The notes under the pieces were generated by a model. That model did not search any database and was not told where the DNA came from. It saw nothing but the letters and a program-made list of their open reading frames with translations. The position numbers and the translations under genes were made by a program. From a virus (taxonomy: Duplodnaviria > Heunggongvirae > Uroviricota > Caudoviricetes), in IMG/VR virus record IMGVR_UViG_2645727901_000008: a stretch of 64,000 bases of DNA. One strand, written 5' to 3'. The first letter of the stretch is position 1; the number at the start of each line of letters is the position of its first letter. This document shows, piece by piece, positions 1-44,215 of this stretch.

Positions 1-321
1 TTCTATCTCCGGTTCCGCGCTCGCGTAATCACGGATCTTGTTCCTCAGCCATGCCACATCAGGAAGAGTTAACGTGGTCCCGGCGGGCATTTCTTCCATT
101 TCTGACTCATGGCCCACCAGCACCCGGAATACCCAGCGCAAATCTGCATTGCCATACGCCCTGTAGGCTGCAAGGTCTGAACGATATACTTCATCAATCT
201 TTATCGTGTACTGGAAATTATCAGAGTGATACTCCGATACCCGCTTAATCATTTCCTGGTGAAACAGCGCACGAAAAATATCGTCTTCAATGTACCTATC
301 GTCGAGTCTGCTATAGCCCAT
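1..321 (-). CDS. hypothetical phage protein, N-terminal part only (gene runs off the window start)
   Basis: Minus-strand frame opens with ATG near 321 (MGYSRLDDRYIEDDIFRALFHQEMIK...) and has no stop before position 1; GAGAGG-like RBS upstream. Absent from ORF track because truncated by the window edge. Confidence 0.45.
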   Translation of the reverse strand, partial: MGYSRLDDRYIEDDIFRALFHQEMIKRVSEYHSDNFQYTIKIDEVYRSDLAAYRAYGNADLRWVFRVLVGHESEMEEMPAGTTLTLPDVAWLRNKIRDYASAEPEIE

Positions 322-514
322 AACAAAGCCTCTCAGTCATAACATGGGGGAAACTGTATGCAGGGTGTGAAATGCGAGAAACAGACAGGCCACCAGTTCA
401 GGGGGATGTGGTTCATAAATCCCCTCACTGGTGACAAGTGACTTTCATTAATCTTTATGCGGGGGCCAGCTTCATTTGCTGGCATTAGATTAAAAATTAA
501 ACGGAGTGAATGAC

Positions 515-649
515 ATGGATGTTATTCTAGAATTGTTAAAGCTTATTGATCTGTTTATGAACGCCTCATTGACCACTCAAATACTGGCGTCAATATTTTT
601 GTTACTCTTCTACCTGGTATTGAGGGAGTTAACAAAGCTACTAATGTGA
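515..649 (+). CDS. small hydrophobic protein (44 aa, one predicted TM helix)
   Basis: ATG preceded by GGAG; product MDVILELLKLIDLFMNASLTTQILASIFLLLFYLVLRELTKLLM; below track size cutoff. Confidence 0.25.
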   Translation: MDVILELLKLIDLFMNASLTTQILASIFLLLFYLVLRELTKLLM

Positions 650-1303
650 TCAAAGTATCACGGTATCTTCATCAACTTCTTTCCCAGCCAGTGACTTTGG
701 CTGGGAGGTGCCTGCTTTAACTTTTTCATGCCCAATAATGGAAAGGAACGAAGCGAGTATGCCTGTTTTTTGCTCTTTCTCGACTGTACCGGTCATCTGC
801 TCTACATAATCTGCACTGGCAACGTTGTGGTATACGGTCGCGTAGCAACACAGGATCATCAGAATATGCTCCGGCCTGATATCCTGCCAGTTCACCCTGT
901 AGACTTCTTCTCCGTTACCGTTGTATTCGGTATCAACGATAGAGTCGGGGATTTCGAAAGCACCTTTGTTATTTTGCGGCAGGGATAATAGTTTCTGGAG
1001 TTTTAACTCTCTGTATCTTTCCATCCCGACGATGATTGCTGCTCTTCCATCGGCATGACGGGTCTTGAGAGTCACCTGACTTGCTCCGGTGCCAGCGGAG
1101 ATCGTTGGCGTAATTTCGTCTACCAGTACCTTAAATTTGCTTTTCCGCAGGGCTGCTATAGCTGGAGGAATTTTTTGCTTTTGCTCCAATGCTGACGCGG
1201 GAAGGGGTTTTACTTCGTTAATAATGAGAGCACCGTCTTTCAGTATTGCAGTGAGCATTTGAGGCTTGCTGGTGGTCAGGCTGAATATTGCGATCTTTTC
1301 CAT
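650..1303 (-). CDS. hypothetical phage protein
   Basis: Track ORF 650..1345; start moved to MEKIAIF, which has a GGAGGAAGG RBS. The longer N-terminus would overlap a hairpin-terminator. Confidence 0.6.
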   Translation of the reverse strand: MEKIAIFSLTTSKPQMLTAILKDGALIINEVKPLPASALEQKQKIPPAIAALRKSKFKVLVDEITPTISAGTGASQVTLKTRHADGRAAIIVGMERYRELKLQKLLSLPQNNKGAFEIPDSIVDTEYNGNGEEVYRVNWQDIRPEHILMILCCYATVYHNVASADYVEQMTGTVEKEQKTGILASFLSIIGHEKVKAGTSQPKSLAGKEVDEDTVIL

Positions 1304-1330
1304 TGTCCTTCCTCCACGGATGACGGATAC

Positions 1331-1362
1331 AAAAAAAGGCCGCACATGGCGGCCTGCTTTGG
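1331..1362 (-). terminator. rho-independent terminator-like hairpin
   Basis: AGGCCGC-ACAT-GCGGCCT stem-loop followed on the minus strand by a run of 7 T. Confidence 0.45.
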
Positions 1363-1446
1363 CGTTATGACTCCCTACCGCGCTTCGGCTGAAAGTTAAT
1401 CGTCAAAAGAACCTTCAACGGGAGCCGTTAGCGCGATGGATTATGT

Positions 1447-1461
1447 GCAGTTTGTGATTTC
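1447..1461 (-). promoter_or_regulatory. candidate late-promoter element GGAAATCACAAACTG (copy 1) followed by CATAAT
   Basis: The 15-mer is identical to the copy at about 60724-60738 and one mismatch from the copy at about 55021-55038; each is followed within 3 nt by a -10-like hexamer. Confidence 0.35.
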
Positions 1462-1571
1462 CAAAATAGTGTCAACCACTTTTTGTGGATTTTATTTTTT
1501 GACCGAAATTTGGCCTAAATCATGTTGATGTAGTTAATTGTTTTTATAACATAAAACTTCATTTTGTTTAC

Positions 1572-2195
1572 ATGAAGGATGGTGTAGTGAAGTTAAGGGT
1601 TTTAGGGGCCGCGCTCGCGGCTATGTTGGGATGCGTATCTGCTAATACTGCCAATGCAACTGCGTTACCTGCACAATTCAGGGCAGGGCAGCAGGTTATG
1701 AATAATGCTGGTGGGGATCATTCACAAGCGGCCATTATGGACTTTTGCAAGAGGGAGGGCATTCCATTACGGCCTGTTGGAACTCAGTTTATTGGTAAAA
1801 CTGACTTTTGCGTTTTTGCATATACAGCATATCTGACGGACAAAGCTATAACAAAAACAGGTTATTCAACCAAAGATACTCTTTCCAGATTAAGTCAGGG
1901 ATGGCAGCAATTCGAAGTGTATCGCCAGCAAGGATTAGGTGAGTTATTGCAACCACTTTTTATGCTTGCGTTGGTGCCCGAGGGGCAGCAATTTTTGGTT
2001 AAAAAGGGAATGCTTCGCCAAAGTGATATTGCCGGGTTCGATAGCATGATGGCTTATGAGCGCAAACTAACCGAGCAGCGAAATAAAAAACCATCTGCTT
2101 CATGTGTGCAAAGTAAAACAGCAGAATACAGTGCAGTAGCCGGGCCTTTAGCCAAACAAATGGCAGAGCAATGGTGTAAAAAATACGGGCAATAA
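1572..2195 (+). CDS. secreted protein or lipoprotein, unknown function
   Basis: N-terminal signal peptide with MLGC lipobox-like motif (LGAALAAMLGCVSANTANA); RBS-like AGGATGG upstream. Confidence 0.6.
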   Translation: MKDGVVKLRVLGAALAAMLGCVSANTANATALPAQFRAGQQVMNNAGGDHSQAAIMDFCKREGIPLRPVGTQFIGKTDFCVFAYTAYLTDKAITKTGYSTKDTLSRLSQGWQQFEVYRQQGLGELLQPLFMLALVPEGQQFLVKKGMLRQSDIAGFDSMMAYERKLTEQRNKKPSASCVQSKTAEYSAVAGPLAKQMAEQWCKKYGQ

Positions 2196-2215
2196 GTTAC
2201 GCAGCGGAGGCAGAA

Positions 2216-2608
2216 TTGAAAAGATTGACTATTGCTTTACTGGCGTCTTTCCCTTTGATCGCGAGCGCCGGAAATTTACAAGTTAAGTGCGGTCGGTTTG
2301 ATATAAAAATCTATCCAGATGCCATATTTCTGAATGGGAATAAGGTTGATAACGTACACCGAAAAACTAAATCTGACGTAATGAGCTATGTGTTCCAGGA
2401 GTATGCGGAGATGGGGGGAACTTACACGCTGTACTCGCTGGATGTTCCTTCTCGCGGTGATATGACATTATCCCATCAATGGCAGAACGCCGATGGCGAA
2501 GCTCTGCGCGAAGTTAAAACAGAAAAATGCGGCACTTTCCATTCTTTTAAAGGGAAAGTGCCAAATGTTAAATCTGTGCTTGAAAAACAGCGCGCAGGTG
2601 ATTTTTAA
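2216..2608 (+). CDS. secreted protein, unknown function
   Basis: Signal peptide MKRLTIALLASFPLIASA; GGAGG RBS 7 nt upstream; 20 nt after the previous gene. Confidence 0.65.
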   Translation: MKRLTIALLASFPLIASAGNLQVKCGRFDIKIYPDAIFLNGNKVDNVHRKTKSDVMSYVFQEYAEMGGTYTLYSLDVPSRGDMTLSHQWQNADGEALREVKTEKCGTFHSFKGKVPNVKSVLEKQRAGDF

Positions 2609-2629
2609 ACTGCGTTAGCACTTTGAACA

Positions 2630-2680
2630 TGGCGACAACACATCTTGGTGGCTGCGTTGTCGCTGTATGTTTTTATAATA
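2630..2680 (+). terminator. terminator-like hairpin after the two secreted-protein genes
   Basis: GCGACAAC...GTTGTCGC stem followed by TGTATGTTTTTATAAT. Confidence 0.4.
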
Positions 2681-2696
2681 TAAAGCATTAAAGTTT

Positions 2697-3314
2697 TCAT
2701 TTTTGTCGGATCTTTTCCAGCATATTTAATTCATTATCACTTTCTGCTGCTGAGACGGTTGGCCTCACATTTCCGAAATATTTCCTGTGAGACTCATGAC
2801 TTATGTATTCACCGACAGTTTCATTCTTGAATATACGAATTTGACATATGCGAGATCCAACAATAAGTTCTACAGGGCTATTCCCATGATTAAATAACTC
2901 TAAAGATATACAGCCTCTGTACCCTGGTTGTATCATGGTATTTAATGAAAGACCAAGCCTTGTATAGCTGCTTCTGGACAATACATCAGCGTAGCAATCT
3001 GGTGGCAAACAAACATATTCTAATGTTGTTGCCAGTACCACTTGATTCGGGTAAACAATGAATCTATCCCCAAGATCTCTCCTTGTTTCCTGGAAAAATG
3101 TTCTGATTGGTTGATGAGTATCATTGTTTTTTGATGGAATTAACTCTATTGACGGCTTCCTTGTCATAATAGACACTAAAAAATCGTAACCAAGTCTAAG
3201 GTCTATGGTGAAGTTCCCAATTTGGTTTTTATTTAGAAGAGGTTCAATGAACAACGACTCAGGTTCTTCTGATTCATAATATTGCAGCAATTCAGCTTTG
3301 CTTAGGAGATTCAT
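2697..3314 (-). CDS. Dcd-type dCTP deaminase / dUTPase-fold protein (gene C of three-gene operon)
   Basis: Aligns by eye to E. coli Dcd across its conserved blocks: IDLRLG, SRSSYTRLGL (Ser/Arg motif), PGYRGCISLELFNHG (catalytic Glu context). Start ATG overlaps the stop of the upstream gene (ATGA); GGAG RBS. Confidence 0.85.
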   Translation of the reverse strand: MNLLSKAELLQYYESEEPESLFIEPLLNKNQIGNFTIDLRLGYDFLVSIMTRKPSIELIPSKNNDTHQPIRTFFQETRRDLGDRFIVYPNQVVLATTLEYVCLPPDCYADVLSRSSYTRLGLSLNTMIQPGYRGCISLELFNHGNSPVELIVGSRICQIRIFKNETVGEYISHESHRKYFGNVRPTVSAAESDNELNMLEKIRQK

Positions 3315-4384
3315 TGTGCACTCCATTTTTCAAGAATCATTACGTTTCGAATCGATTTTTCAACCAAATCATTTATAGTTTTTTCTATGGCTTCTTGTGA
3401 CAACCCAGACCATATACCCGTAGGTTTTTCCCATTCAGAGCATAAGTACTGCCAGCTGCTGTTAATAAAAGCATGCATTTCATTGTGGTCGCGAATAACA
3501 AAAGGACGCACATTATCAAAAGCTGATTTCACATCAAGCAAAGGTGTCGGCAATGTCAAACAAGGAGAAATAATCTGCCCACCATTATGTAAGGCTGATA
3601 TCACAGCATTGAACATGCCAACAACTGGATTTTCCACTTTGTTCAAAAAGTCGCTTACAATTTTAACTCTATCTTCTGTGGATGGGTGAGTATAGCTTGC
3701 AGGATGAGAGCCAGCTAATTTGTATAAGAAATCTACCCCACTTTTTCCAATAAATTGGGCACTAAATAGATCTGCAAAATATTCTCTGCAATGATTTATC
3801 CAAATAACATCAGGTAGATTACTCCATTCTGGTCCAGGAAGTGTGCCTTTGTCCTTGGAACGATAGTTAAGACAGGCAAGCTCAGAAATACCTTTGCTAA
3901 TATCAACGAAATGTCCCAATTCGTGATATAAAGGTATAGAGCATAATGGTCGTCTTCTGTACATTTCAGGTAATGAAATCTGAATTAATTCGACATCGAA
4001 TTTGACATTTAAAACTTCGTCAAATAAAGAATACAAATTCTTGTTTACAGACTTAAAATAAAACCCATGCATATCTGGAGATAGGGCTGTGGTTATAAGT
4101 GTTTTTTCACTTATCCATTTTTTACAGGCATCATTTAAGCAATAGACAATCTCGTAGGGAATTTTCTTTGTAGTACTGCCAGTGAAAAAATTAACTGCAT
4201 CGGTGATAAAAAAAGTACAATCCGCAATTATTTTATCAGCAACATTCACATGGTTTTCATAGAGCTTATCCACCGCTTCTTGTAGAACAGCAAGATATTC
4301 ATGCATGTCTTTAGAAAAATAGGGAGATTCTGATATCTCCCTTAGCTTATTTCGAACTAATGTAAGTTGTGTAAATGCAAGCAT
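3311..4384 (-). CDS. HExxH zinc metallopeptidase-like protein, ImmA/IrrE (M78)-like core (gene B)
   Basis: HELGH at residues 154-158 and downstream REYFADLFSAQF resembling the ImmA/IrrE E..AN.FA motif; N- and C-terminal regions have no recognisable domain. Start overlaps the upstream stop (TAATG). Confidence 0.8.
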   Translation of the reverse strand: MLAFTQLTLVRNKLREISESPYFSKDMHEYLAVLQEAVDKLYENHVNVADKIIADCTFFITDAVNFFTGSTTKKIPYEIVYCLNDACKKWISEKTLITTALSPDMHGFYFKSVNKNLYSLFDEVLNVKFDVELIQISLPEMYRRRPLCSIPLYHELGHFVDISKGISELACLNYRSKDKGTLPGPEWSNLPDVIWINHCREYFADLFSAQFIGKSGVDFLYKLAGSHPASYTHPSTEDRVKIVSDFLNKVENPVVGMFNAVISALHNGGQIISPCLTLPTPLLDVKSAFDNVRPFVIRDHNEMHAFINSSWQYLCSEWEKPTGIWSGLSQEAIEKTINDLVEKSIRNVMILEKWSAQ

Positions 4385-4689
4385 TAAATGTACTCTAATA
4401 CATTCCGGGCCATTACGGGTTCTAACATATCTTCGCTAGTTACTTTGGTTAGCACCTGGGCGAGCGCCTTAGTGTGGCGTATCTCTACCGCGAGCGAGAT
4501 GGACTCTCTGTGAGAAGGAATCTGTAATTGATCACCTTTATCTACACTTAAGTTTGAGGCTTCTCTGATCACCTCATAAACCCGTAACTTTAACTGCTGT
4601 GACACTTCTTGTTGAGATGCTATAAGCTGAAGTACAGTCTTGATCAACTTCAAAGAATCAGAAGCTTGCTGAGGAACCGCATAGAGCAT
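4384..4689 (-). CDS. small helical protein of unknown function (gene A, first in operon)
   Basis: 101 aa; strong AAGGAGG RBS 5 nt before the ATG; stop overlaps the start of gene B. Confidence 0.7.
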   Translation of the reverse strand: MLYAVPQQASDSLKLIKTVLQLIASQQEVSQQLKLRVYEVIREASNLSVDKGDQLQIPSHRESISLAVEIRHTKALAQVLTKVTSEDMLEPVMARNVLEYI

Positions 4690-4824
4690 AACCCCTCCTT
4701 TCCCTTATCTATAACCGCTTTCTTTTTTCTGTGTATGTTAAAAGTAGAAGCGGTTTTTACCTTTTGTAATATATATAGTGTCTAAAACTAACTTTGGCAC
4801 TATATATGGCATGATATCTATGTT

Positions 4825-4870
4825 TTAAAGACACAAAAGCTCTGTTAAAACAGAGCTTTTGTGTCTTTAA
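4825..4870. promoter_or_regulatory. perfect 22-bp inverted repeat (46-bp palindrome) in the operon's upstream region
   Basis: TTAAAGACACAAAAGCTCTGTT-AA-AACAGAGCTTTTGTGTCTTTAA, about 140-180 nt upstream of gene A; a second 10-bp inverted repeat (ATATATAGTG/CACTATATAT) lies at about 4771-4808. Confidence 0.5.
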
Positions 4871-5014
4871 CTTGATCATTTTCTCGCTGAAGTGTATGTC
4901 AGGCTTAGCTCATAATCAAGTTGCTTCCAAGCTAAAAATGAGCTAGCTCCCTGAAACACTAAGAGCGGGGTGTTTCATTTATTAGCGTTGGGCCTGACGG
5001 TGTGTAGGTGAATT

Positions 5015-5302
5015 TTAGCTCATTACTCGATAACGACGGGGAATGGAATTCTCCATCAGGCCACGAATTACTCCCGCCTCACGTAGTTCCTCTGTCTCCC
5101 AGTATCTGTTTGTCACCAGATCGAGGCTGGCTATGACCTTGTGCCGGTCATTCGGCATAGCTAATTTTTCTGCTATAACCATCAGTGAAAACTCTTCATC
5201 CAGTAGAATTTGATAGCAGTTTTTTGATAGTTCCACTTCCCTTATGAGACTGAAACGTCGCTGGATTGTGGCAGTAGAGTAAGTGAAATCTATTTTCTTC
5301 AT
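5015..5302 (-). CDS. hypothetical protein
   Basis: 95-aa ORF downstream of the Rha-like gene, same strand. Confidence 0.5.
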   Translation of the reverse strand: MKKIDFTYSTATIQRRFSLIREVELSKNCYQILLDEEFSLMVIAEKLAMPNDRHKVIASLDLVTNRYWETEELREAGVIRGLMENSIPRRYRVMS

Positions 5303-5361
5303 CGTGCGGAGAATCCGATTATTTAGCAGTTAAAGCCCCGGACAGGCCGGGGCAACAGTAA

Positions 5362-6288
5362 TTAACTAACAATCCAGTCCATAGCAACCATATCCTCTGG
5401 CGCTAAATCAATAGCATGGATTTTCCCATCCCGGATAGTGCGCCAGTGCTTCCTTGATCCGCCTTCGGGCCATACCCATACACCTTCAGACCATGAGGCG
5501 CGACGGCATACCGTTGCATATCCACTTCTGATCTTCTCTCTGGCGGTATGCAGTGACAGATTATCTTTTGGGATTTCCGGTAAAGGATGATGGATTGCCT
5601 GAAACAGCCCCATCTTGGGATGATACCAGCGTTTGTTGCGTGGTTCTGCCTCCGACATAACCTGCTTGAAGGCTTTCTGGAAGGGGGCCAGGGCCACAAT
5701 GGAGCGTCGCGCAAGCAAACCATCTGGAGTTAAAAACTCATGCGTATCGGTGGGAATCCGGAAAGCGTTAACCAGGTTGCGACATTTGGCTTCGGTCAGG
5801 CCACATTTCGCCGCCAGCTGGCGGTAGCCAATGTAGCCTTCCGGAATATTGCCTTTCTTTATTTGCTCGAGTGTTTCAGCGACCATCGATACTTGTGCTG
5901 ATACCTCGGCTACCTGGGCATTTACGGCGTTGATCCGGCGTTCATGCTCAAGATGCATTTGCGCCATTTCAGCCAGGATTTCGGCTTTTGATTTTAACTG
6001 TACCCGGGCATTCTCCAGTTCGCGCCAGCGGTCCACCAGCCGGGCGGTGAATTCGGGAGAGAGCTGCGCGACGACGACAATACTATCGCGCTTGCCTTGC
6101 TCGCCTTCGAAGACGTAATAGCTCGCCGGGCGGCCTGCGGTGGGCTTTTCCTCAATTTGAGGAAAAGATATTACGCCCCGTTCCGCCAGGTGTTCAATGG
6201 TGCGTTTAACGTTATCAGGGCGCTTACCTACCAGTTCCGCGATCTCAATGCTGGTCATTGTCGCTTTTTGAGAGATGGACAGATTCAT
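5362..6288 (-). CDS. Rha-family phage regulatory protein (antirepressor-like) fused in frame to a C-terminal DUF2829-like module
   Basis: N-terminal region matches the Rha-like protein at 43508..44215 (SIEIAELVGKR..DNVKRTIE, VFEGEQGKRDSI, YRIPTDTHEFLTP). The last ~70 aa match the separate 66-aa gene at 43311..43511 (CRR.SW..GVW.WP...DW). Confidence 0.8.
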   Translation of the reverse strand: MNLSISQKATMTSIEIAELVGKRPDNVKRTIEHLAERGVISFPQIEEKPTAGRPASYYVFEGEQGKRDSIVVVAQLSPEFTARLVDRWRELENARVQLKSKAEILAEMAQMHLEHERRINAVNAQVAEVSAQVSMVAETLEQIKKGNIPEGYIGYRQLAAKCGLTEAKCRNLVNAFRIPTDTHEFLTPDGLLARRSIVALAPFQKAFKQVMSEAEPRNKRWYHPKMGLFQAIHHPLPEIPKDNLSLHTAREKIRSGYATVCRRASWSEGVWVWPEGGSRKHWRTIRDGKIHAIDLAPEDMVAMDWIVS

Positions 6289-6503
6289 CAGTGCGCCTCC
6301 ACGCAGTTCATCGGCAGATTCCAGTAATTGAGGATCTCCATCGCATCAAGAGTGAAGCGAGCAGCAAAAATGCAGGGTTCTTCGGGAAGGTATGAGCGCG
6401 CCTCTGCTTCGGTAGCAGCCATGACGCAGATATACAGGTGTTTTTGGCAGGAATAGAAACGCCAGATAAATTCAGAATGAGTTGGGGTAGGGATAGTAGC
6501 CAT
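6288..6503 (-). CDS. small Icd-like protein upstream of the Rha-like gene
   Basis: 71 aa; paralog of 44215..44439 (shared EFIWRF.S.QKH and AATE.EARS); AAGGAGG RBS; stop overlaps Rha start. Confidence 0.6.
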   Translation of the reverse strand: MATIPTPTHSEFIWRFYSCQKHLYICVMAATEAEARSYLPEEPCIFAARFTLDAMEILNYWNLPMNCVEAH

Positions 6504-6700
6504 ATTGGCAGCCTCCTTTGACTAAGTTAAGGAGCTACCGCGTGAGGTTCCAATCTCAATGGCGGTAGCACTGACTGGGTTGGAACTACCGGCGTCAAAG
6601 GGAACCGGCCTGCCTTTCGGCAGCCCAGCCAGCACTACCATTGATCTCTGAGCTAAACGCTACGTATGGCTGTGCGATGGCATGACACAAAAAAAGACGC
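6504..6700 (-). ncRNA. candidate c4-like antisense/leader RNA region upstream of icd-like gene (copy 1)
   Basis: Minus-strand RNA contains CCCUUUGAC (about 6594-6602) complementary to GUCAAAGGAGG covering the icd-like SD (about 6512-6522); also a UAGCUCAG tRNA-like stretch. Confidence 0.3.
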
Positions 6701-6754
6701 TTTCGGCGTCTGTGTCGCCTTTGACATTATCCGGGGTTCCAATCCCGGCACCCG

Positions 6755-6777
6755 TTTTTCTAAGGTGCCGTAGAAAT
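6755..6777. promoter_or_regulatory. TTTCTA-N8-TAGAAA palindromic operator-like element upstream of immI-like copy 1
   Basis: cgTTTTTCTAAggtgccgTAGAAATAtacc; a related inverted arrangement sits upstream of copy 2 at about 44770-44800. Confidence 0.35.
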
Positions 6778-6815
6778 ATACCCCACGATAATGCCAGGGC
6801 GCAACAGTCAGTATT

Positions 6816-6983
6816 TTATGCTTTGGCGGATTTCTTCCGGGCTTGCTTGCAGGCGTAGGCCATTGCTTTAGCTTTCACTTCATCCAGCTTCCCGGTGATC
6901 GCTTCTTTTCCGAGAGTGACAAACCAGTCATAGCAACCGCCAGTGATGTTCTGGATTTGAAAGTTGAGGTAGCGAACGGTCAT
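6816..6983 (-). CDS. small basic protein (55 aa), unknown function
   Basis: ATG preceded by GGGGG; product MTVRYLNFQIQNITGGCYDWFVTLGKEAITGKLDEVKAKAMAYACKQARKKSAKA; below track size cutoff. Confidence 0.3.
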   Translation of the reverse strand: MTVRYLNFQIQNITGGCYDWFVTLGKEAITGKLDEVKAKAMAYACKQARKKSAKA

Positions 6984-7302
6984 TTTGACACCCCCAGCGC
7001 GAGTAAAGAATGCAGATTATCGCGTGAGTGGCGGACAACGAGTGATGGGAAAAGACAGTAGCTGTTCATAGTGTAGTGACTCCTTGCTTTCGGAGCCGCC
7101 ATCGACTGTTCCACGGTCTGGTGGCGGCGCAATAAAGGCTGGAACACCGTGAGTCAACGGGGGCTTTTCAGCCACCTATATTGCACCGCCATAGGTATAG
7201 CGGCGGCAATAATACGAAAAACTAAACAGTTTGTCTCAAAAAGTTGACCGGTGTGCCAATCGGTAGTGAATGTACATCGGAGAAATTTACAATTCAACTT
7301 AA

Positions 7303-7320
7303 AATGTTAGAAAACTAATT
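7303..7320 (+). promoter_or_regulatory. operator-like motif copy (AATGTTAGAAAACTAATT)
   Basis: Member of the dispersed TGTTAGAAA(A/T)(C/T)TAATTT family; abuts the stop of 7315..7893. Confidence 0.4.
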
Positions 7321-7893
7321 TATCAATTCAATCGCCATCTGATACAACGTCATTTCATCGGCATTGTGCCGCATGAAATCTGCTTTTCCGCCTATTTTTC
7401 CGTCAGCATGAACAGGGACCAGCCAGGGATATTGTTCTCGGACCTCGGCTGGCGCTGCGTACTGGTGGTGCCATTTACACAAAGGGAGGACATATTTATG
7501 CGCGTTCTCTGCCGTTCTCCCGAAGATATGGTGCAGGGATACTACTGGGCTATGTTGTCCGTGAATATGGCAGGCAATGCAGGGGAGAGTACCGATAGCG
7601 GTCTGTATCCGGCGTTCATCAGCTGTGAGTGATCTGCCCTTCAGGCCGCGTGACGTGCGTGTTTTTTTGGGCGGAGCGGATACAGCTTTATCTTTTCTCC
7701 GCTGTTCATATTGCTTTGCTTTTTCAATTTTCTTTTGCCGATATTCAGGCGATGCGGCTTTTTCTCTCGCTCGCTGCTGCTGGCGTTGAGCTTGTTGAAG
7801 GCGCTTTGCCCTTTGTTCCTCTCGCCAGGCCGGGTCAGCCAATTTTTGCATGGCTTTTTGTCTCTGTTTCTCCCAATAGCTCTGTTTCTGCAT
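7315..7893 (-). CDS. zinc-finger (Cys/His-rich) phage protein with basic coiled N-terminus, HNH/DUF968-C-terminal-like
   Basis: CIACHIHG...SLHHIFGRT...PLCKWHH cluster resembles the C-terminal Cys/His cluster of 11350..12345; flanked on both sides by operator-like motifs in inverted orientation. Confidence 0.65.
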   Translation of the reverse strand: MQKQSYWEKQRQKAMQKLADPAWREEQRAKRLQQAQRQQQRAREKAASPEYRQKKIEKAKQYEQRRKDKAVSAPPKKTRTSRGLKGRSLTADERRIQTAIGTLPCIACHIHGQHSPVVSLHHIFGRTAENAHKYVLPLCKWHHQYAAPAEVREQYPWLVPVHADGKIGGKADFMRHNADEMTLYQMAIELIN

Positions 7894-7952
7894 GATGGCA
7901 GTCTCTTACTTTTCAATGATTTTTCTATGATTGATCAAAACTGTTAGATATT

Positions 7953-7972
7953 CAAAATTGATTTTCTAACAC
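7953..7972 (-). promoter_or_regulatory. operator-like motif copy (TGTGTTAGAAAATCAATT on minus strand) with partner half-site TGTTAGA at about 7942
   Basis: About 65 nt upstream of the 7893 start codon; GTTAGA-N16-TCTAAC inverted arrangement. Confidence 0.4.
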
Positions 7973-8165
7973 AAAACATTAATATCATTCCTGATAACTG
8001 TTTGGAGGACATGATGCTTATAGCTTTAAGTGCGATCCACCAGCCATCTGTGAATGAAATTGGCCTGTTCTATGTGTTGTTTTTCGGGGCGTTGGCGCTA
8101 CTTGAGCTTGGTATTGAGCTTTTCGCAGTGCTTATGTTTTGCGTCACGATTTTGGGGAAATTTTG

Positions 8166-8789
8166 ATGGTGAAACGAGTTTTGAAAATTTACATCGCGGG
8201 GCCGATGACTGGTTATCCAGATTACAACCGTGCTGCGTTTAATGCGAAAGCGAGCGAGCTGATGGCTGAAGGGCATATCGTTCTGAATCCAGCTGTGTTA
8301 CCTGGTGGCCTTTGTCAGAGTGAATACATGGATATTTGCCTGGCAATGGTGCGTTCTGCTGATGCGATCTACTTGCTCAATCGATGGGAGGAATCGATTG
8401 GTGCTCGTGCAGAGCACGCGCTGGCTGAAAAGCTGGGGCTGACTGTAATTTATGAATCACCAACCAACATTGAATGCCAGGTTGCTCCGCATATTTACCG
8501 GGAACTGGTCAATGCGTTACGTGATGTTGCTATTGAATGTCACGGCACGGATCAGCTTCGCGCTCGCTTAAGCCAAACCCTTTCCAGTTACCTGTCTTTG
8601 GCTGAAGGATACAACCTCCGACAGCGAAGAATGGTCAAATTAATCACTCTTTTATCGCAATCCCTTGCAAATGCTGAACCAACCAATCCGCTACCTGGTG
8701 ACGCAATGAATTATCTGAAGTCATGCGGTGTTGTTTCTGAAGATGCAGTTCGTTTTGTGGAGTTTATGTCTCGGAGGATGTCGGCGTGA
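8166..8789 (+). CDS. DUF4406-like (nucleoside deoxyribosyltransferase-fold) phage protein
   Basis: KIYIAGPMTGYPDYN motif; start moved to MVKRVLK with GGGGA RBS. C-terminal ~35 aa resemble 16882..17505. Confidence 0.6.
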   Translation: MVKRVLKIYIAGPMTGYPDYNRAAFNAKASELMAEGHIVLNPAVLPGGLCQSEYMDICLAMVRSADAIYLLNRWEESIGARAEHALAEKLGLTVIYESPTNIECQVAPHIYRELVNALRDVAIECHGTDQLRARLSQTLSSYLSLAEGYNLRQRRMVKLITLLSQSLANAEPTNPLPGDAMNYLKSCGVVSEDAVRFVEFMSRRMSA

Positions 8790-9103
8790 GCTGGCGGGGA
8801 TGGGGAAGGGCAGAAATCATGATACTCCGCCAGTGCGCCGGAACTATGACGGTAGAGAGTATTGGGAAGCTGATCGGTCGTACCGGTGATGCCGTCAGGA
8901 CTAAAGCGCGGGAGCTGGGGATCAGCATGATTCTGAAAGGAGACTTTCATCCGTCAGCCAAATACCGGCAGAGCGATATAGAACTGGCACGGCAGCTTCA
9001 TCAGTGTGGTGTTCCCCGCCGTGAGATCGCGGAAAAACTCGAAATGCCCCTGGGCATGATTAATCAGTACGTTTATTTCGAAAGGAGAGTACATGAAGTC
9101 TGA
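8786..9103 (+). CDS. small helix-turn-helix-like protein
   Basis: Overlapping start/stop with neighbours; SIGKLIGRTGDAVRTKARELG HTH-like stretch. Confidence 0.5.
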   Translation: MSWRGWGRAEIMILRQCAGTMTVESIGKLIGRTGDAVRTKARELGISMILKGDFHPSAKYRQSDIELARQLHQCGVPRREIAEKLEMPLGMINQYVYFERRVHEV

Positions 9104-9518
9104 AGGTTTAACGCCAGAGCAACTGGCGGAGCGTAACGCTCAGTATGTGACGGAAATTTCCCGTCTTGAGAAAGAGCGCGCGGCGCTGGCGGCGGAGAAT
9201 GCAGGGCTAAAGGCGATATGTGATGACTGTCGCAGGTTCATCATGAATGGTGTGCAGATGGGTTATATCAAGGTGCCAACAGCGGAAACAGATCCAGACC
9301 TTGAGACAATACGTATTGCTATATCACCACAAAAGCCCATTCCAGCCACCGATGCTTTTCTGGCTGAAGTCCGGGCACAGGGATTGGAGATGTTTGCTCA
9401 GAAATGTAACTCAAAATCAGAACAGTCGATTGCATCTGATATACGCGATAACTGGAAACTACTCGGTGAACATGCCACTGACTTTGCCGCAGAGCTTCGC
9501 AAGGGAGGGAAACAGTGA
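9093..9518 (+). CDS. hypothetical phage early protein (coiled-coil N-terminus)
   Basis: 141-aa ORF in an operon of overlapping genes. Confidence 0.55.
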   Translation: MKSEGLTPEQLAERNAQYVTEISRLEKERAALAAENAGLKAICDDCRRFIMNGVQMGYIKVPTAETDPDLETIRIAISPQKPIPATDAFLAEVRAQGLEMFAQKCNSKSEQSIASDIRDNWKLLGEHATDFAAELRKGGKQ

Positions 9519-9763
9519 GTAATTCAGCACGACTACAGCTTGGTTTTTCACCGCTATCAAAAACCATCGTGTTGGCAAAAATGCGTGACTTAGGGGATGG
9601 AACAAAACGTCGTGTTGGCAATGATCGCGGTCGTGATGTAACCAACGAGGCCGCTCAACTCGTCTGGCATCTGGTCATGGCAGAAGGCGGTGAAATTAAT
9701 TGGGAGCTGGATGATGGTTCGCGCATGGTATTGAAGGCAGAAAAGCAGGAGCCACCACAGTGA
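9515..9763 (+). CDS. hypothetical protein
   Basis: 82 aa; 4-nt overlap with the upstream gene. Confidence 0.5.
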   Translation: MSNSARLQLGFSPLSKTIVLAKMRDLGDGTKRRVGNDRGRDVTNEAAQLVWHLVMAEGGEINWELDDGSRMVLKAEKQEPPQ

Positions 9764-10053
9764 ATATCGACACCACGATAACGATCGATACGGCCCTCAA
9801 CACAGGTTTGGCCCTGCTCGGTTGGTTTTACATCATGTTCAGTGCGGGGAAGTGGGCGGCCTCTGTTTTTCTAAAGCAGTGGGGAAAGCGCCGCAAACAG
9901 GAGATACGCCAGAAAGCGTTAGAGGCGTTCTATGACGCCTTTGAACTTAGCCGCATTGAGCCTGGCACAACAGCCAGGGTAGCAACAAAAGATGACCTGA
10001 TGATCGTGATGTTCCGACAGGAGAAAGCAAATGGCAGCAAAGCGAATGACTAA
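9760..10053 (+). CDS. hypothetical membrane protein
   Basis: 97 aa; hydrophobic segment LALLGWFYIMF; overlaps neighbours. Confidence 0.5.
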   Translation: MNIDTTITIDTALNTGLALLGWFYIMFSAGKWAASVFLKQWGKRRKQEIRQKALEAFYDAFELSRIEPGTTARVATKDDLMIVMFRQEKANGSKAND

Positions 10054-10255
10054 TCGCGAACTTGTTGATGCCGCGATTGAACTTGCTGGCGATTTTTATT
10101 CCATGATGGGGTACACGCATCGCCCAGGCTTCAAATATTGGGAGTCTCCGCACCCGCAAGAGCAACGGGTATTTCAAATGGCCTGTCGCGCTTTTGAAGT
10201 TATTCGCGGTTCTGATGTGATGGACGCGATTGCTGATTTGGAGGATGAAGAGTGA
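10031..10255 (+). CDS. hypothetical protein
   Basis: 74 aa; translationally coupled. Confidence 0.5.
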   Translation: MAAKRMTNRELVDAAIELAGDFYSMMGYTHRPGFKYWESPHPQEQRVFQMACRAFEVIRGSDVMDAIADLEDEE

Positions 10256-10563
10256 ACACAATTAAAGAAATGCCGGTAGAACGTGATGAATATGGCTGCT
10301 GGACACATCCGGAGTATGAGAAGTTTTGCGCAGGTCGTGAATATATTTCCACTGAGGAATTTGACGCCTGGATGAAGGAAAATAATCTTCAGTGGACTAT
10401 TCGCAGTATGGATGAAGATGATTTTGATCTGGACGCAGCTGGTCCCGATATTGCCGCCTGGGAACCGGAGCGACCAGAAGGTGAAGGCTGGTTTGTTGGC
10501 TCTATTCATGACACTGAAGATGGTCCAGTTTGTATCTGGCTGCGGGAGAAGGTTGCCGCATGA
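10252..10563 (+). CDS. hypothetical acidic protein
   Basis: 103 aa; stop overlaps the phosphatase start (ATGA). Confidence 0.5.
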
Positions 10564-11252
10564 TCCAAGCTATGCATGAAGTGAATTTATATAGCCGTAT
10601 TGATGGTTCTGGCTACAGAAACATATGGGTAGTTGGTGATCTGCATGGTTGCTACACCAGACTGATGTCCGAACTCCATCGTGTGGATTTTGACCCGGCG
10701 CAGGATTTACTGATATCGGTTGGCGACCTTATCGATCGCGGTACTGAAAATGTCGAATGTCTGGAACTATTACAGATGCCCTGGTTCAGGGCAGTAATGG
10801 GGAACCATGAGCGGTTGATGCTTGATGCGTTAAGTCCTGATGGCAACGTGAATAACTGGCTAATGAATGGCGGACAATGGTTCTTCATGCTGGACACTGA
10901 TCAGGAAATATTAGCCAAGGCGCTGGTGGAGCTGGTAAAGCGTCTGCCATATATCATTGAGTTGAACACCGGACATGAAACTATCGTTATAGCCCATGCC
11001 GACTATCCAGGTGGAGAGTACCAGTTCGGTAAGGATGTATCGCTTTTTGATGTTGTCTGGTCGCGCAGTCGCGTCGGTGATTCGATAGATGGCATTGGTG
11101 GAGAAATCACAGGCGCAGATCGCTTTATCTTTGGGCACACACCGGTACGAAGACCAAAAGCATACTGGAATCAGCACTACATAGACACGGGCGCGGTTTT
11201 TTGTGGAAATCTGACGCTAATGCAGGTGAAGGGAGGGCAGCTTAAAGTCTGA
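10560..11252 (+). CDS. serine/threonine protein phosphatase (lambda PPase / NinI-like calcineurin fold)
   Basis: Metallophosphatase motifs GDLHG, GDLIDRG, GNHE present; start moved to MIQAMHEV. Confidence 0.85.
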
Positions 11253-11292
11253 TCAAATCATTTACGCACTCAAAATGCGTTAGAACATTGAT

Positions 11293-11312
11293 TTTAGTTT
11301 TCTAACATATTA
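11293..11312 (-). promoter_or_regulatory. operator-like motif copy (ATGTTAGAAAACTAAAAT on minus strand) with GTTAGAA partner at about 11279
   Basis: Intergenic, between the phosphatase and DUF968-like genes; GTTAGAA-N14-TTCTAAC inverted repeat. Confidence 0.4.
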
Positions 11313-11349
11313 TTTTACCACTCGGAACAAAACAGAGTCGGTATGCATT

Positions 11350-12345
11350 ATGAGTGCAATAATCACCCCATATGTCGTAAATGAAACTGGTGTGGCTGTC
11401 TTTCCGGTAGACAAGCCCACCAGCAACTACATCGGCGCAGGTCGCCGTTTCATTATCTCACCACTTCCGCGAGAACAGGCTGAAAACACTCCAGATGGCG
11501 TAGTGGATCTGAATTATTCGCTGGTTGCCAACCAGTCGCTGAAACCATTTTTTCAAAGCGAGCGCGTATTTAACGCGTTAGGCGGTGAAGATTCGCTTGT
11601 TCATTGGGTAAGTTCCAATATCCACGATTGCCAGGCGCACGATAAGCGCGATTGCAGCCACCAGCTAACCACTCATTTCTATAACGGCTCTGCCGTTCGC
11701 CTGTGCTGGAAGCATGATGCGGAATACATGATGAAGGGGTACAGCAAGCTGGACGACCAGTTATCCCTGAATCGCGCCAACTGGGTTATGAACTGGGCTG
11801 CGAGCGAGTTAAAACTACCGCCAGAACGCGATCTGAGCATGGTTGAACTCACTTTTTGGGCCATTCGCCGGAATCTGAAAGATGAGCTGCCAGATGAAGC
11901 CGGGCGCATTGCATTTTGTCAGCCAAAAACTGAAATCCCTACCGGTACGCTGAAAGAATCAGATATCACCTGGGAGCACAGTACCCGCGAGCTGGTGGAC
12001 ATAACCGCAGAGCAGATCGTCAACCTGTCTGTAGATGAGGATTCCGGCCTGCTTTATATGCGCCGACCAAAAGCGGTCCTCGGTAAAAGCCCAGCTTATC
12101 TCCGGTTTGTGGTTTCTCGTCCGTGCATCGGATGCGGTGGCAAAGTTAACCACCCGTTCATGTACCGCGCCCGCTCGTTAAACGAACACGACCGCTGGGC
12201 TGTTCCTCTTTGTGATGACTGCGCCAGAAGCGCAGAACACGATGTCCGGGCATGGGAAAAAGCACATGGCATACGCCTTTATGTAGCCGCTAACCAGCTT
12301 TTCGACTTCGCCATCGAGCGCGGAGTGATCACGTTCAATAACTGA
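11350..12345 (+). CDS. DUF968-like phage protein with C-terminal Cys-rich zinc-binding region
   Basis: 331 aa; CIGCGG...HPFMYRARSLNEHDRWAVPLCDDC cluster. Confidence 0.65.
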   Translation: MSAIITPYVVNETGVAVFPVDKPTSNYIGAGRRFIISPLPREQAENTPDGVVDLNYSLVANQSLKPFFQSERVFNALGGEDSLVHWVSSNIHDCQAHDKRDCSHQLTTHFYNGSAVRLCWKHDAEYMMKGYSKLDDQLSLNRANWVMNWAASELKLPPERDLSMVELTFWAIRRNLKDELPDEAGRIAFCQPKTEIPTGTLKESDITWEHSTRELVDITAEQIVNLSVDEDSGLLYMRRPKAVLGKSPAYLRFVVSRPCIGCGGKVNHPFMYRARSLNEHDRWAVPLCDDCARSAEHDVRAWEKAHGIRLYVAANQLFDFAIERGVITFNN

Positions 12346-12358
12346 TGGGAACAACGCA

Positions 12359-12658
12359 ATGAGTCAAGGTAACGGTGGTGGAGCTGCAAAGTGCAGAATC
12401 TCCACTTGTTTGATTAATGGCAGAAAAATAGAACCGTGCGCGGCGCTGGCACAATCTCTGGAGCAGGATGCTGAATACACGACGCGAAAAGGCCTGCTGA
12501 AATACAAAGTCTATAACCATGAATTAATTCATTCACAGGACCTGATCATGCTGCGGTCTGGTGAATTTTCTAAATCGCCTATTCGAGTTTCATTTTGCCC
12601 ATTCTGTGGTGAAAGTCTGAAAACGTGGGAAGCGGAGGCAACCAGTGAGCAAAATTAA
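12359..12658 (+). CDS. small Cys-containing protein, paralog A1 (CPFCGESLKTW family)
   Basis: Shares C-terminal FCPFCGESLKTW and central IEPCA with 14151..14414. Confidence 0.6.
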   Translation: MSQGNGGGAAKCRISTCLINGRKIEPCAALAQSLEQDAEYTTRKGLLKYKVYNHELIHSQDLIMLRSGEFSKSPIRVSFCPFCGESLKTWEAEATSEQN

Positions 12659-13103
12659 CTATCAAGAACTGCGCGAGGCGGCGGAACAGGCAACGCAAGA
12701 TGAATGGGTAGCATATATTTTGCCGGGTCATAACGGCATTTATCCTGCGCGCACGTCTGAAGGTAGGCATTGCGGATACTTTATTGACTGGCCTGGCATT
12801 GATGGACAAAGGAATGCTGGTGCTAATGCCCGTTATATCGCGGCTATCCCACCAAAAGTTGCACTGTCACTCCTAGGCGAAATTAAGCGCCTGGAGGACA
12901 AAAATATTGATGCCATGTGCCAAATTGCAGAGCTGGAGAGCAATCGCGCGGCGCTGGCGGCGGAGCATGGTATTCAGATTGCAATAAATGAACTGCTTGC
13001 TCTGGCCCCGCGTCTGGATAAACGAGCGATGGATGCACTCTCTGTGGCTGTGGAGCACCTGTGTAAACTGATTAAGAAGGAGGCAGTCAGTGAGCAAAAT
13101 TAA
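12645..13103 (+). CDS. Ea22-like early protein, paralog B1
   Basis: GTG start; N-terminus MSKINYQELREAAE shared with 13090..13770 and 14407..14961. Confidence 0.6.
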   Translation: MSKINYQELREAAEQATQDEWVAYILPGHNGIYPARTSEGRHCGYFIDWPGIDGQRNAGANARYIAAIPPKVALSLLGEIKRLEDKNIDAMCQIAELESNRAALAAEHGIQIAINELLALAPRLDKRAMDALSVAVEHLCKLIKKEAVSEQN

Positions 13104-13770
13104 TTACCAGGCACTGCGTGAGGCGGCAGAAAAAGCACTACATGGTGAATGGGGTTACGAGGCAGGGGCAATCTGGAATACCTGTGATAGCGGCTATGTT
13201 CAGCACATGGCAGCGGTCGAGACTGGCGATGATGTTAGCGATGAAGAGCATATGAGCAATATGCGTTTTATCACGCTCGCCACGCCAACTGTTGTTCTTG
13301 GATTGCTTGATGAGCTTTCTGAAGCTAAAGCTGCCGAAGAGAATGAGTCCAGTTGTGCTAACAGCGTTATCGACATCGCTATCAACTGGCAGATGCGAGC
13401 CAAAGATGCAGAAGCCAAGCTGGAAGCCGCAGAGAAGCGCATTGCGGAACTGGAAACAAAAGCGAACCAGCAAACCAGAATAAGCGATAAGAATCTGACC
13501 AGGCTGATTGCCGATGCTGACAAAATGCTGGGTATGCGTTCGCCGGTTATAGACAGCGAGTGGTGGACGCTTTTACGGCAGTTCCTGATTGAACTTCAGG
13601 ATCGCCGCAGAAACAGCATTTCTGAATCTGGAATCCGTGCTGAAACCCTGAATGATTTAATCCGACATATTGACAGAAACCTGGATATTGACGCGATGAA
13701 ATCGCCGTTTGAACTGTCATCTGAAATTGTGGATTACGTTAATAGGCAACTGCACAAGGAGAATTCGTAA
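13090..13770 (+). CDS. Ea22-like early protein, paralog B2
   Basis: N-terminus MSKINYQALREAAE; internal NQQTRISDKNLTRLIADADKMLG segment repeated downstream at about 13990. Confidence 0.6.
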   Translation: MSKINYQALREAAEKALHGEWGYEAGAIWNTCDSGYVQHMAAVETGDDVSDEEHMSNMRFITLATPTVVLGLLDELSEAKAAEENESSCANSVIDIAINWQMRAKDAEAKLEAAEKRIAELETKANQQTRISDKNLTRLIADADKMLGMRSPVIDSEWWTLLRQFLIELQDRRRNSISESGIRAETLNDLIRHIDRNLDIDAMKSPFELSSEIVDYVNRQLHKENS

Positions 13771-43511: not shown

Positions 43512-44215
43512 TCACCTCCCCAACCGATCACCTGGAATTGCCCCATTTTGGGGTGATACCAGCGTTTTCCTCGGTGTTCAGCCTCCGACATCATCCGGTT
43601 AAAAGCATTCATGAAGGGAGATAAGGCCACGATGGAACGACGCGACAATACCCCCTCTGGAGTTAAAAACTCATGTGTATCGGTGGGGATCCGGTAAGCG
43701 TTAACCAGGTTGCGACATTTGGCTTCGGTCAGGCCGCATTTTGCCGCCAGCTGGCGGTAGCCAATGTAACCTTCCGGCATGTTGCCCTTCTTGATTTGCT
43801 CGACGGTTTCTACCACCTGGCTAACCTTTGACTCAACAACATGAAGCCGCTTTTGCTGCTGAACTGCATTTGCAGCCATTGCGGCGATCATCTCTATTTC
43901 GGTCAACGGCTGGCGTGCTTGTTCTTCCAGTTCGCGCCAGCGGTCCACCAGCCGGGCGGTGAATTCGGGAGAGAGCTGCGCGACGACGATAATGCTATCG
44001 CGCTTGCCTTGCTCGCCTTCGAAGACGTAAGCCTCAACACTACGTCGTAGTCCTAAGTTATTGATTTTTTCGAAAACCTCAATTTGAGGACGAACAATAA
44101 CGCCACCTTTGTCTAATGTCTCAATAGTGCGTTTCACATTGTCATGACGTTTTCCCACCAGCTCCGCGATCTCAATGCTGGTCATTGATGGCTTTTCGAG
44201 AATGCAGATATCCAT
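43508..44215 (-). CDS. Rha-family phage regulatory protein (antirepressor-like), copy 2
   Basis: 235 aa; shares segments of 90-98% nucleotide identity with 5362..6288. Confidence 0.8.
   Translation of the reverse strand: MDICILEKPSMTSIEIAELVGKRHDNVKRTIETLDKGGVIVRPQIEVFEKINNLGLRRSVEAYVFEGEQGKRDSIIVVAQLSPEFTARLVDRWRELEEQARQPLTEIEMIAAMAANAVQQQKRLHVVESKVSQVVETVEQIKKGNMPEGYIGYRQLAAKCGLTEAKCRNLVNAYRIPTDTHEFLTPEGVLSRRSIVALSPFMNAFNRMMSEAEHRGKRWYHPKMGQFQVIGWGGE

Follow-up and report, generated by a model that had tools for sequence, protein, structure and literature searches.

The question that we address here is what three tightly packed genes, encoding a small acidic protein (A), a zinc peptidase-like protein (B) and a relative of the deoxycytidine triphosphate (dCTP) deaminase Dcd (C), might accomplish together on a virus. 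The genes lie on a 64,000-nucleotide (nt) stretch of DNA (hereafter the window), taken from IMG/VR virus record IMGVR_UViG_2645727901_000008 (Caudoviricetes). Based on computational comparisons, this trio is probably an undescribed anti-phage or addiction module, and the cassette that contains it is most likely a self-contained mobile conflict module of the anti-phage, abortive-infection type, which would attack the deoxycytidine pool. More specifically, to the reading of the cassette as a protease-gated dCTP-deaminating defence or abortive-infection module we attach a probability slightly short of even.

All three genes occupy the minus strand, at the coordinates originally proposed for them. 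Gene A (4384-4689) encodes a protein of 101 amino acids (aa), described as all-helical and acidic on the basis of its open reading frame (ORF), its positional homologues and an AlphaFold2 (AF2) model; gene B (3311-4384) encodes a soluble, HExxH zinc metallopeptidase-like protein of 357 aa, in which an M48-like core is joined to extra N- and C-terminal helical parts; and gene C (2697-3314) encodes a 205-aa dCTP deaminase-like protein of the Dcd family, which has the dUTPase fold. An alternative ATG at 3326 would lengthen C to 209 aa, and RefSeq annotates the 205-aa form. Stop and start codons overlap at both junctions, as TAATG between A and B (which have one base, 4384, in common) and as ATGA between B and C if C begins at 3314, so that the coupled operon described in the initial annotation can be read directly from the sequence, as can the strong Shine-Dalgarno motif reported for the first gene (AAGGAGG, minus strand, 4700-4694, four bases upstream of the start codon of A).

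The boundaries of the cassette are defined by collinearity with a sister plasmid (L017), positions 6502-9111 of which correspond to window positions 1-2610, and positions 9143-13118 to window positions 5028-9000. Because both flanks are collinear with contiguous L017 DNA, the cassette can be placed at 2611-5027, as 2,417 bp that replace 31 bp of the sister plasmid and comprise the three genes together with their own upstream and downstream non-coding DNA. Its GC content is 0.374, compared with 0.449 in the left flank, 0.494 in the right flank and 0.473 across the window, and a local profile varies between 0.34 and 0.41 along the block against 0.43-0.54 in its surroundings. Among complete Escherichia coli genomes, the region of approximately 2.5 kb around the block matches 53 plasmids of 89-109 kb and no chromosome; the block itself is carried by 8 of these 53 related plasmids, while the others match only the first 111 bases of the query. 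The cassette is a discrete, horizontally acquired mobile insertion, and the earlier suspicion of AT-rich, horizontally acquired cargo is well supported by its composition relative to the flanks and by a clean insertion that most sister plasmids lack. No target-site duplication or terminal repeats were seen at the cassette edges. The insertion site is downstream of an immI-type icd-ant region, and the annotated neighbours include an Icd-like inhibitor, a Rha-family antirepressor, the Ref nuclease, tail and baseplate genes and HigB/HigA. Given these neighbours, the host element is an E. coli P1-like phage-plasmid.

The association between the three genes goes far beyond chance, because the order A-B-C with overlapping junctions recurs in approximately 60 loci of two phyla, the Proteobacteria and Bacteroidota. 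The order small ORF-B-DCD is kept in all 10 contexts fetched through homologues of B or C, originating from Dickeya, Aeromonas, Rhizobium, Dechloromonas, Geobacter, Methylotuvimicrobium, Nitrosomonas and three metagenomic contigs. A survey restricted to one genome per species yielded 50 loci, distributed over the Alpha-, Beta-, Gamma- and Deltaproteobacteria and the Bacteroidota, 49 of which have a C-family gene overlapping B at the 3' end of the latter; upstream of B, either A or an ORF equivalent in position is present wherever flanking sequence exists, and in the loci surveyed the C-subfamily enzyme was never found without A and B. Mean pairwise identity over the same 24 loci is 33% for A, 40% for B and 57% for C, an increase along the operon that would fit a constrained effector combined with a fast-evolving sensor or inhibitor. 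Furthermore, a search of representative proteins recovered a natural fusion of B (residues 12-397) and C (residues 425-624) in a protein of 631 aa (P0334), although as a single case this may reflect a frameshift or an assembly artefact.

Profile matches show that C is a real Dcd-family enzyme. It matches the DCD family (PF22769) with an E-value of 1.3e-30 (107 bits, against a cut-off of 27) and the NCBIfam equivalog model dCTP_deam (TIGR02274) with 113.3 bits, exceeding the curated cut-off of 92.8, and its matches in the PDB are the Dcd structures 4xjc and 1xs1, with the RSS..R motif and the catalytic Glu in register with E. coli Dcd (1xs1). In Dcd, deamination is carried out by S111, R115 and E138. 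When 118 members of the C subfamily are aligned with the E. coli enzyme (the numbering of which we follow), S111 is kept in 117, R115 and E138 are kept in all 118, and the equivalents of R110, S112 and K178 are invariant; the window protein possesses all three catalytic residues (its own E139 corresponding to E138), in agreement with the initial description of C as a Dcd-type enzyme that retains its catalytic Ser, Arg and Glu. The subfamily is nevertheless unlike the housekeeping enzyme of E. coli (P28248; 1xs1), with which it shares fold, family and the six residues above, in several respects. The motif-3 Asp (D128) is replaced by Gln in 117 of the 118 members, H121 by Asn and V122 by Thr, and a three-residue deletion affects the 120-126 loop in all 118 (its exact placement within the loop being uncertain), such that the canonical loop (H121, V122, A124, H125, R126) and D128 are not retained. 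The position of W131 stays aromatic, as Phe or Tyr, a C-terminal extension of approximately 15-20 residues is present relative to E. coli Dcd, and identity is approximately 25-30%. Moreover, housekeeping Dcd is a solitary core gene, whereas the C gene is accessory, mobile and located in an operon with A and B. In this fold, the 3'-OH is contacted by the motif-3 Asp, which is also the general base of pyrophosphate hydrolysis in dUTPases and in bifunctional enzymes, and the 120-126 loop of E. coli Dcd switches conformation during feedback inhibition by deoxythymidine triphosphate (dTTP). From this combination of kept and altered residues, we infer that C would be a monofunctional deaminase in which regulation or base recognition is altered. 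The replacement of Asp by Gln and the loop deletion, both fixed in the subfamily, may hold clues to what determines feedback control or base specificity in the Dcd family.

A potential explanation for the presence of such an enzyme on a phage-like element, raised as an alternative in the initial annotation, is that it supplies nucleotides for replication of the element (from dCTP to deoxyuridine triphosphate, dUTP, then to deoxyuridine monophosphate, dUMP, and finally to dTTP) under the control of the protease. A score over the curated cut-off of the housekeeping dCTP deaminase model would suit this role, as would the match of C to the PHROGs phage dCTP deaminase family phrog_1663 and the fact that the host element is a temperate phage-plasmid. 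However, E. coli already has its own dcd, most sister P1-like plasmids do without the cassette, and most copies of the trio are chromosomal, in islands with restriction-modification (RM), toxin-antitoxin (TA) and Bub genes (see below) rather than replication genes. The trio is rare, being found in 8 of 5,426 complete E. coli genomes, in 17 of 72,556 plasmids (enterobacterial P1-like plasmids, rhizobial megaplasmids and one Emticicia plasmid) and in only 3 IMG/VR contigs, and neither cassette DNA (by megablast) nor the B protein (by tblastn) was detected in any of 50,697 GenBank phage records. As C is also invariably accompanied by A and B, dUMP supply is disfavoured, and we judge it very improbable. 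Despite the lack of a match in GenBank phages, PHROGs contains exact-length families for all three proteins, which presumably derive from prophages. The match of C to a further PHROGs family of 79 aa, phrog_23419, is confined to residues 131-209 (the C-terminal 79 residues; window 2697-2936), and therefore a split or truncated copy of C exists in at least one phage or prophage record.

The identity of B is more difficult to establish. It contains the motifs HELGH (residues 154-158), REYFAD (200-205, with EYFAD at 201-205) and THPSTEDR (232-239), and in an alignment of 67 sequences H154, E155, G157, H158, D161, E201, F203, D205, H233, P234 and R239 are invariant, together with a C-terminal helix of the form N..L.EK..RN (NDLVEKSIRN in the window). 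The combination of HExxH, ExxAD and THPxxxxR is what we take to be the M48 motif set. The best family match of B is to Pfam M48 (PF01435; E 0.01, score 16.1), under the gathering score of 20.3, and when members are scanned singly, 32 of the 67 match M48 and 22 match the anthrax-lethal-factor family (M34); no match was found in PADLOC or NCBIfam. The AF2 model of B is of high quality (predicted local distance difference test, pLDDT, 94.3; predicted template modelling score 0.92) and combines a three-helix bundle at the N-terminus with a mixed core and helices at the C-terminus, yet a Foldseek search of this model against the PDB returned nothing significant, and sequence and profile searches of PDB sequences returned no match. 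The protein is predicted to be soluble, without transmembrane segments. In comparison with M48 peptidases such as HtpX, BepA and Ste24/ZMPSTE24, B therefore differs in scoring below the family threshold, in lacking a match to a solved structure, in its solubility, and in possessing the extra N-terminal three-helix bundle and the conserved C-terminal NDLVEKSIRN helix.

B had previously been described as an ImmA/IrrE-type peptidase on the basis of HELGH and a downstream E..FA motif. Both motifs are present, and with them the zinc-binding pattern of HExxH and a downstream Glu ligand (H154, E155, H158, E201), but this pattern is common to all gluzincins, and so is not diagnostic. The ImmA/IrrE family (M78, PF06114) is not matched by the window protein at E-values up to 1, nor by any of the 67 members at E-values up to 0.1, while genuine M78 neighbours in the same loci match it at 1e-15 to 1e-21. 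A helix-turn-helix (HTH) repressor, the usual partner of ImmA/IrrE peptidases, is likewise not recognised in A (see below). On account of its motifs and weak fold matches, B is a divergent gluzincin nearest to M48 rather than a member of ImmA/IrrE, and it is probably active. The family is small: out of 1.84 billion cluster representatives, 554 are recovered at E <= 1e-3 and 218 at E <= 1e-30. An apparent 'short' subfamily of 292-308 aa (L007, L009, L012, L014) proved to be a gene-calling artefact, as the frame is open back to the stop codon of A. Indeed, public gene calls shorten B by approximately 55-75 residues in many genomes. Because the frame in these cases is open as far as the A stop, and because the lost part encodes conserved N-terminal helices, B probably starts at a non-ATG codon overlapping A in the miscalled genomes.

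Gene A is the least conserved member of the trio. No Pfam, NCBIfam or PADLOC family matches it, and a word-index search recovered only ten homologues. However, small ORFs upstream of B in other loci align with A over their full length, a hidden Markov model built from them detects A in every proteobacterial locus with enough flank, and in Bacteroidota an ORF of 95-105 aa with a similar N-terminus (MLYSH or MYLAQ) occupies the same position. The N-terminus of A itself is conserved as ML[AY]A.P. The net charge of A ranges from 0 to -8 across the family, and its AF2 model, made from a 7-sequence alignment, has five helices at low confidence (pLDDT 55). A search for HTH families gave no significant match, the best being LacI (E 0.092, 13 bits against a cut-off of 27), although a cryptic fold may escape notice in so poor a model. 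Since it is acidic and without an HTH match, A is unlikely to be a repressor of the ImmR/CapH type.

With these identities in mind, a mechanism can be proposed in which A, B and C are co-produced from a single translationally coupled operon and assemble into a complex. C would be the effector, keeping the chemistry for deamination of (d)CTP to (d)UTP, but no longer possessing the motif-3 Asp with which pyrophosphate is hydrolysed in dUTPase-fold enzymes and having undergone remodelling of the dTTP-feedback loop, so that, once freed, it would act without regulation, depleting dCTP and filling the cell with dUTP. In resting cells C would be held off by A and/or B; a cue linked to infection would then activate B, which would cleave either A or the C-terminal tail of C, and the deaminase activity so released would starve and uracilate replicating phage DNA. 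The copy in the window would represent lysogenic-conversion cargo of the P1-like phage-plasmid. We prefer this defence reading because the trio is conserved as an overlapping operon in two phyla (B with C in 49 of 50 loci), because B and C occur as a natural fusion and have invariant catalytic residues in both enzymes, because identity increases along the operon, from 33% in A to 40% in B and 57% in C, and because the B frame runs back to the A stop even where gene callers have shortened it. It is further favoured by the accessory and mobile nature of the trio (8 of 53 sister plasmids, 8 of 5,426 E. coli genomes, 17 of 72,556 plasmids), by neighbours that include mobile-element, RM, TA, CBASS (anti-phage signalling by cyclic oligonucleotides) and other defence genes, and by the precedent of dCTP deamination as a defence, achieved by an unrelated fold.

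Several points weigh against the proposed mechanism. No PADLOC model matches the trio, the roles assigned to A and B are guesses, with a model for A that is unreliable, and neither the Foldseek search nor the PDB sequence and profile searches gave B a close solved relative. Additionally, D128Q and the loop deletion could indicate a different substrate or a role other than deamination; a location in defence islands is also compatible with addiction modules; the neighbourhood survey described below had no matched random control; and the frequent linkage to Bub operons may mean that the trio is not autonomous in the genomes concerned.

An alternative hypothesis is that the roles of the two enzymes are reversed, with B as a protease toxin comparable to Lit, C as a sensor or regulator of pools of dCTP, dUTP, dTTP or modified deoxynucleoside triphosphates, and A as an inhibitor. 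The active site of B is fully conserved and is accompanied by large extra helical domains, the base-recognition loop of C has been remodelled across the family as would be expected for a different ligand, and the B-C fusion shows direct coupling of the two proteins. Yet the deaminase residues are conserved throughout the 118 sequences (S111 in 117, R115 and E138 in all), which argues for turnover beyond binding, and neither the PADLOC model for Lit (U49) nor that for any other effector protease matches B. We therefore regard a reversal of roles as improbable.

The genomic surroundings of the trio are consistent with a defensive function, but not exclusively so. Neighbours inspected by hand include integrases, insertion sequence (IS) and Tn7 genes, type I and type II RM systems, genes encoding TIR and MazG-C domains, MazE-PIN, Phd-ParE and VapBC pairs, and pairs of HTH and M78 genes. 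For 49 loci, a PADLOC scan of the three closest genes to either side detected capP (6), capH (2), mad2 of MADS (4), type I, II and III RM, a CBASS cyclase with a TIR effector, AbiE, HerA and PD-Lambda-2, and at one locus a caspase-nSTAND1-WD40 protein abuts the trio. Thus, rather than the housekeeping synteny that the initial annotation had named as grounds for rejecting its proposal, we find homologues beside integrases, IS/Tn7, RM, TA, CapH/CapP, CBASS, AbiE, MADS and NLR-like genes. These loci lie in defence or mobile-element neighbourhoods, an enrichment that is qualitative for all neighbours except Bub, given the absence of a matched random control. On a Nitrosomonas-related contig (L013, 1-2246), genes encoding TIR-domain, MazG-C kinase-like and UDG-like proteins lie just past the integrase flanking the trio, and this gene set resembles predicted nucleotide-centric conflict systems of the DefensePredictor paper.

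The same surroundings could be explained by an addiction or TA-type stabilisation function, in which C would be the toxin (acting through dCTP depletion and dUTP poisoning), A a labile antitoxin, and B a protease that degrades A or a protein that neutralises C. Loss of the element would then kill or arrest the cell, and the benefit would be maintenance of the element rather than exclusion of phages. The occurrence of the trio on plasmids, phage-plasmids and integrase-bounded islands fits this hypothesis, as do a small, fast-evolving first gene in a tightly coupled operon and the location of several loci amid the classical TA pairs noted above; HigBA-type TA genes are, in addition, already present nearby on the P1-like backbone. 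On the other hand, many loci adjoin dedicated anti-phage systems and CapH/CapP regulators, and a simple TA pair needs no protease subunit. Addiction is an unlikely explanation, and TA and defence roles are not mutually exclusive.

A striking feature of these neighbourhoods is the presence of genes for ubiquitin-like conjugation. The most frequent neighbouring domains are ThiF with Prok-JAB (10 genes), Multiubiquitin (10), Prok-E2_E and DUF6527, and profiles built from one locus identified a Type I Bub operon (BubAB, BubCD and BubE, that is, Ubl-E2, JAB-E1 and a DUF6527 protease) within approximately 5 kb of the trio in 22 of the 49 species-representative loci. In many other genomes the trio is paired with a Type I Bub operon and with CapH/CapP regulators. 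Three arrangements occur. In nine alphaproteobacterial loci, bubAB-bubCD-bubE-A-B-C form a gap-free six-gene array on one strand (L031, from Rhizobium aethiopicum, 6909-11634; also L032, L034, L036-L040 and L053); in a second arrangement Bub and the trio are divergent, with a CapH/CapP-like pair between them; and in a third Bub is downstream of the trio (these other arrangements being found in L009, L018, L042, L043, L049, L051, L054-L056, L058, L060 and L066). Type I Bub operons are bacterial ubiquitination-like operons (6E.1 / DUF6527; Ye et al., bioRxiv 10.1101/2024.11.21.623953). Bub operons are uncommon, 544 having been identified in IMG, and the Bub literature states that neither their targets nor their role are known, with no protection against phage shown so far. 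The Bub-related literature that we examined does not mention the deaminase trio.

Bub and the trio are thus alike in standing side by side and in having CapH/CapP-type regulators and mobile or defence contexts in common, which raises the possibility that the trio is an accessory arm of the Bub pathway, either controlled by Bub conjugation or controlling it, with stand-alone copies such as that in the window being degenerate or working with a pathway of the host. The gap-free arrays, the proximity of the two operons in 22 of 49 loci and the lack of known targets and function for Bub all leave room for such a role. However, A, B and C have no homology with BubAB, BubCD or BubE, Bub is lacking from 27 of the 49 loci and from the entire 64-kb window, the published architecture of 544 Bub operons includes no trio, and the variable orientation (co-directional, divergent or downstream) is typical of two separable modules. 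An accessory role of this kind is therefore doubtful. Our preferred reading, a protease-gated deaminase, can be extended towards Bub in a different way: a dUTPase-fold deaminase licensed by a dedicated M48-like protease could be the missing functional partner of Type I Bub operons, coupling Bub conjugation, or induction controlled by CapH/CapP, to the destruction or corruption of the deoxycytidine pool. In this extension, the remodelled base-recognition loop might also allow C to act on modified dCTPs made by phages (5-methyl- or 5-hydroxymethyl-dCTP). We consider this extension speculative and rather unlikely. Regardless, the strong linkage in multiple arrangements provides a concrete lead on what Type I Bub operons do.

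The proposal that no described system has this architecture is upheld, in that none was found in PADLOC v2 or the full-text literature, a search that falls short of newer DefenseFinder models and some relevant papers. The fold and architecture of the trio differ from those of known defensive dCTP deaminases. A dCTP deaminase with a defensive role has been described as a 576-aa protein combining a kinase with a zinc deaminase (Tal et al., bioRxiv 10.1101/2021.04.26.441389), and AvcD/AvcI (DcdV) is a type III TA system in which the toxin AvcD is held off by the RNA AvcI (PMC10511110). Both enzymes have the zinc cytidine-deaminase fold and an N-terminal kinase or P-loop domain, whereas C is a 205-aa protein with the metal-independent dUTPase fold, and no PADLOC model matches C at E-values up to 1. 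They nevertheless resemble the trio in the proposed outcome, namely deamination of deoxycytidine nucleotides during infection that starves phage replication, and AvcD resembles C as proposed here in being a toxin restrained by a small partner, although that partner is an RNA in the case of AvcI, and a zinc peptidase and a small protein in the case of the trio. The M78 control modules (ImmA/ImmR, IrrE/DdrO, CapP/CapH and RosmerTA; PF06114) are alike in placing an HExxH peptidase beside a small partner and an effector, as a likely proteolytic switch, and CapH/CapP pairs are themselves frequent neighbours of the trio; however, B has M48-like motifs and no PF06114 match (0 of 67), and A is acidic with no HTH match.

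A number of candidate precedents were rejected. 'DCD' in the papers examined refers to an unrelated EVE/DCD domain that binds modified bases; the 'dUTPase' predicted as a defence domain in the DefensePredictor paper belongs to a different MazG-C/aGPT-Pplase system; and the 'dCTP deaminase' rows in its SHAP table were too ambiguous to be used. The RefSeq accessions of the trio do not appear in the part of the DefensePredictor tables examined. If the preferred reading is correct, dCTP deamination would have been reached a second time as an immune effector, via the unrelated dUTPase fold, with a protease switch in place of a kinase fusion or an RNA antitoxin, and P1-like phage-plasmids would have spread a compact three-gene system between enterobacteria.

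The cassette also carries what appears to be its own regulatory DNA. The 338 bp upstream of A form part of the cassette and are conserved with the Dickeya and Aeromonas copies, the conserved DNA corresponding to window 4771-4902, L002 7426-7695 and L004 7421-7690. An inverted-repeat search identified a perfect palindrome of 22+22 nt (46 bp, 100% complementary) at 4825-4870, approximately 135-180 nt upstream of A, whose two arms are unchanged in the Dickeya copy and whose core stem is retained in Aeromonas; it resembles a bidirectional intrinsic terminator or else an operator. A second inverted repeat (ATATATAGTG...CACTATATAT) at 4771-4807 overlaps a promoter-like TTAAAA-18-TATAGT at 4828-4799, and is conserved in Dickeya and Aeromonas, its arms remaining complementary through a compensatory change. 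Upstream of the palindrome, a consensus scan found a promoter-like site on the minus strand (CTGACA-16-AATGAT, 4875-4902), the -35 block of which (CTTGACATA) is conserved in Dickeya and Aeromonas; promoter-like sites are no more numerous here than in shuffled sequence, so this site alone is weak evidence. A promoter followed immediately by a terminator-like hairpin upstream of A could constitute a tiny RNA gene, by analogy with the RNA antitoxin AvcI, although an Rfam scan of the cassette gave nothing near gathering scores. At the other end, a terminator-like hairpin is predicted by consensus scan on the plus strand at 2646-2665, within the 86 bp between the C stop and the left cassette edge.

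Outside the operon, a 95-aa ORF on the minus strand at 5015-5302, just upstream of the cassette, has a 3' end unlike that of the equivalent ORF in cassette-free sisters, and the insertion apparently replaced the 3' end of this ORF. The P1-like backbone also carries another nucleotide-related accessory gene, encoding a DUF4406 (nucleoside 2-deoxyribosyltransferase-like) protein at 8139-8789 on the plus strand, which adjoins the Ref nuclease gene and is conserved in sister plasmids. Finally, window positions 43531-44227 are approximately 82% identical to the Rha/antirepressor-type region near the cassette (window ~5360-6060, via positions 3139-3856 of L068, a related IMG/VR element), which suggests a paralogous antirepressor-like gene elsewhere on the plasmid.

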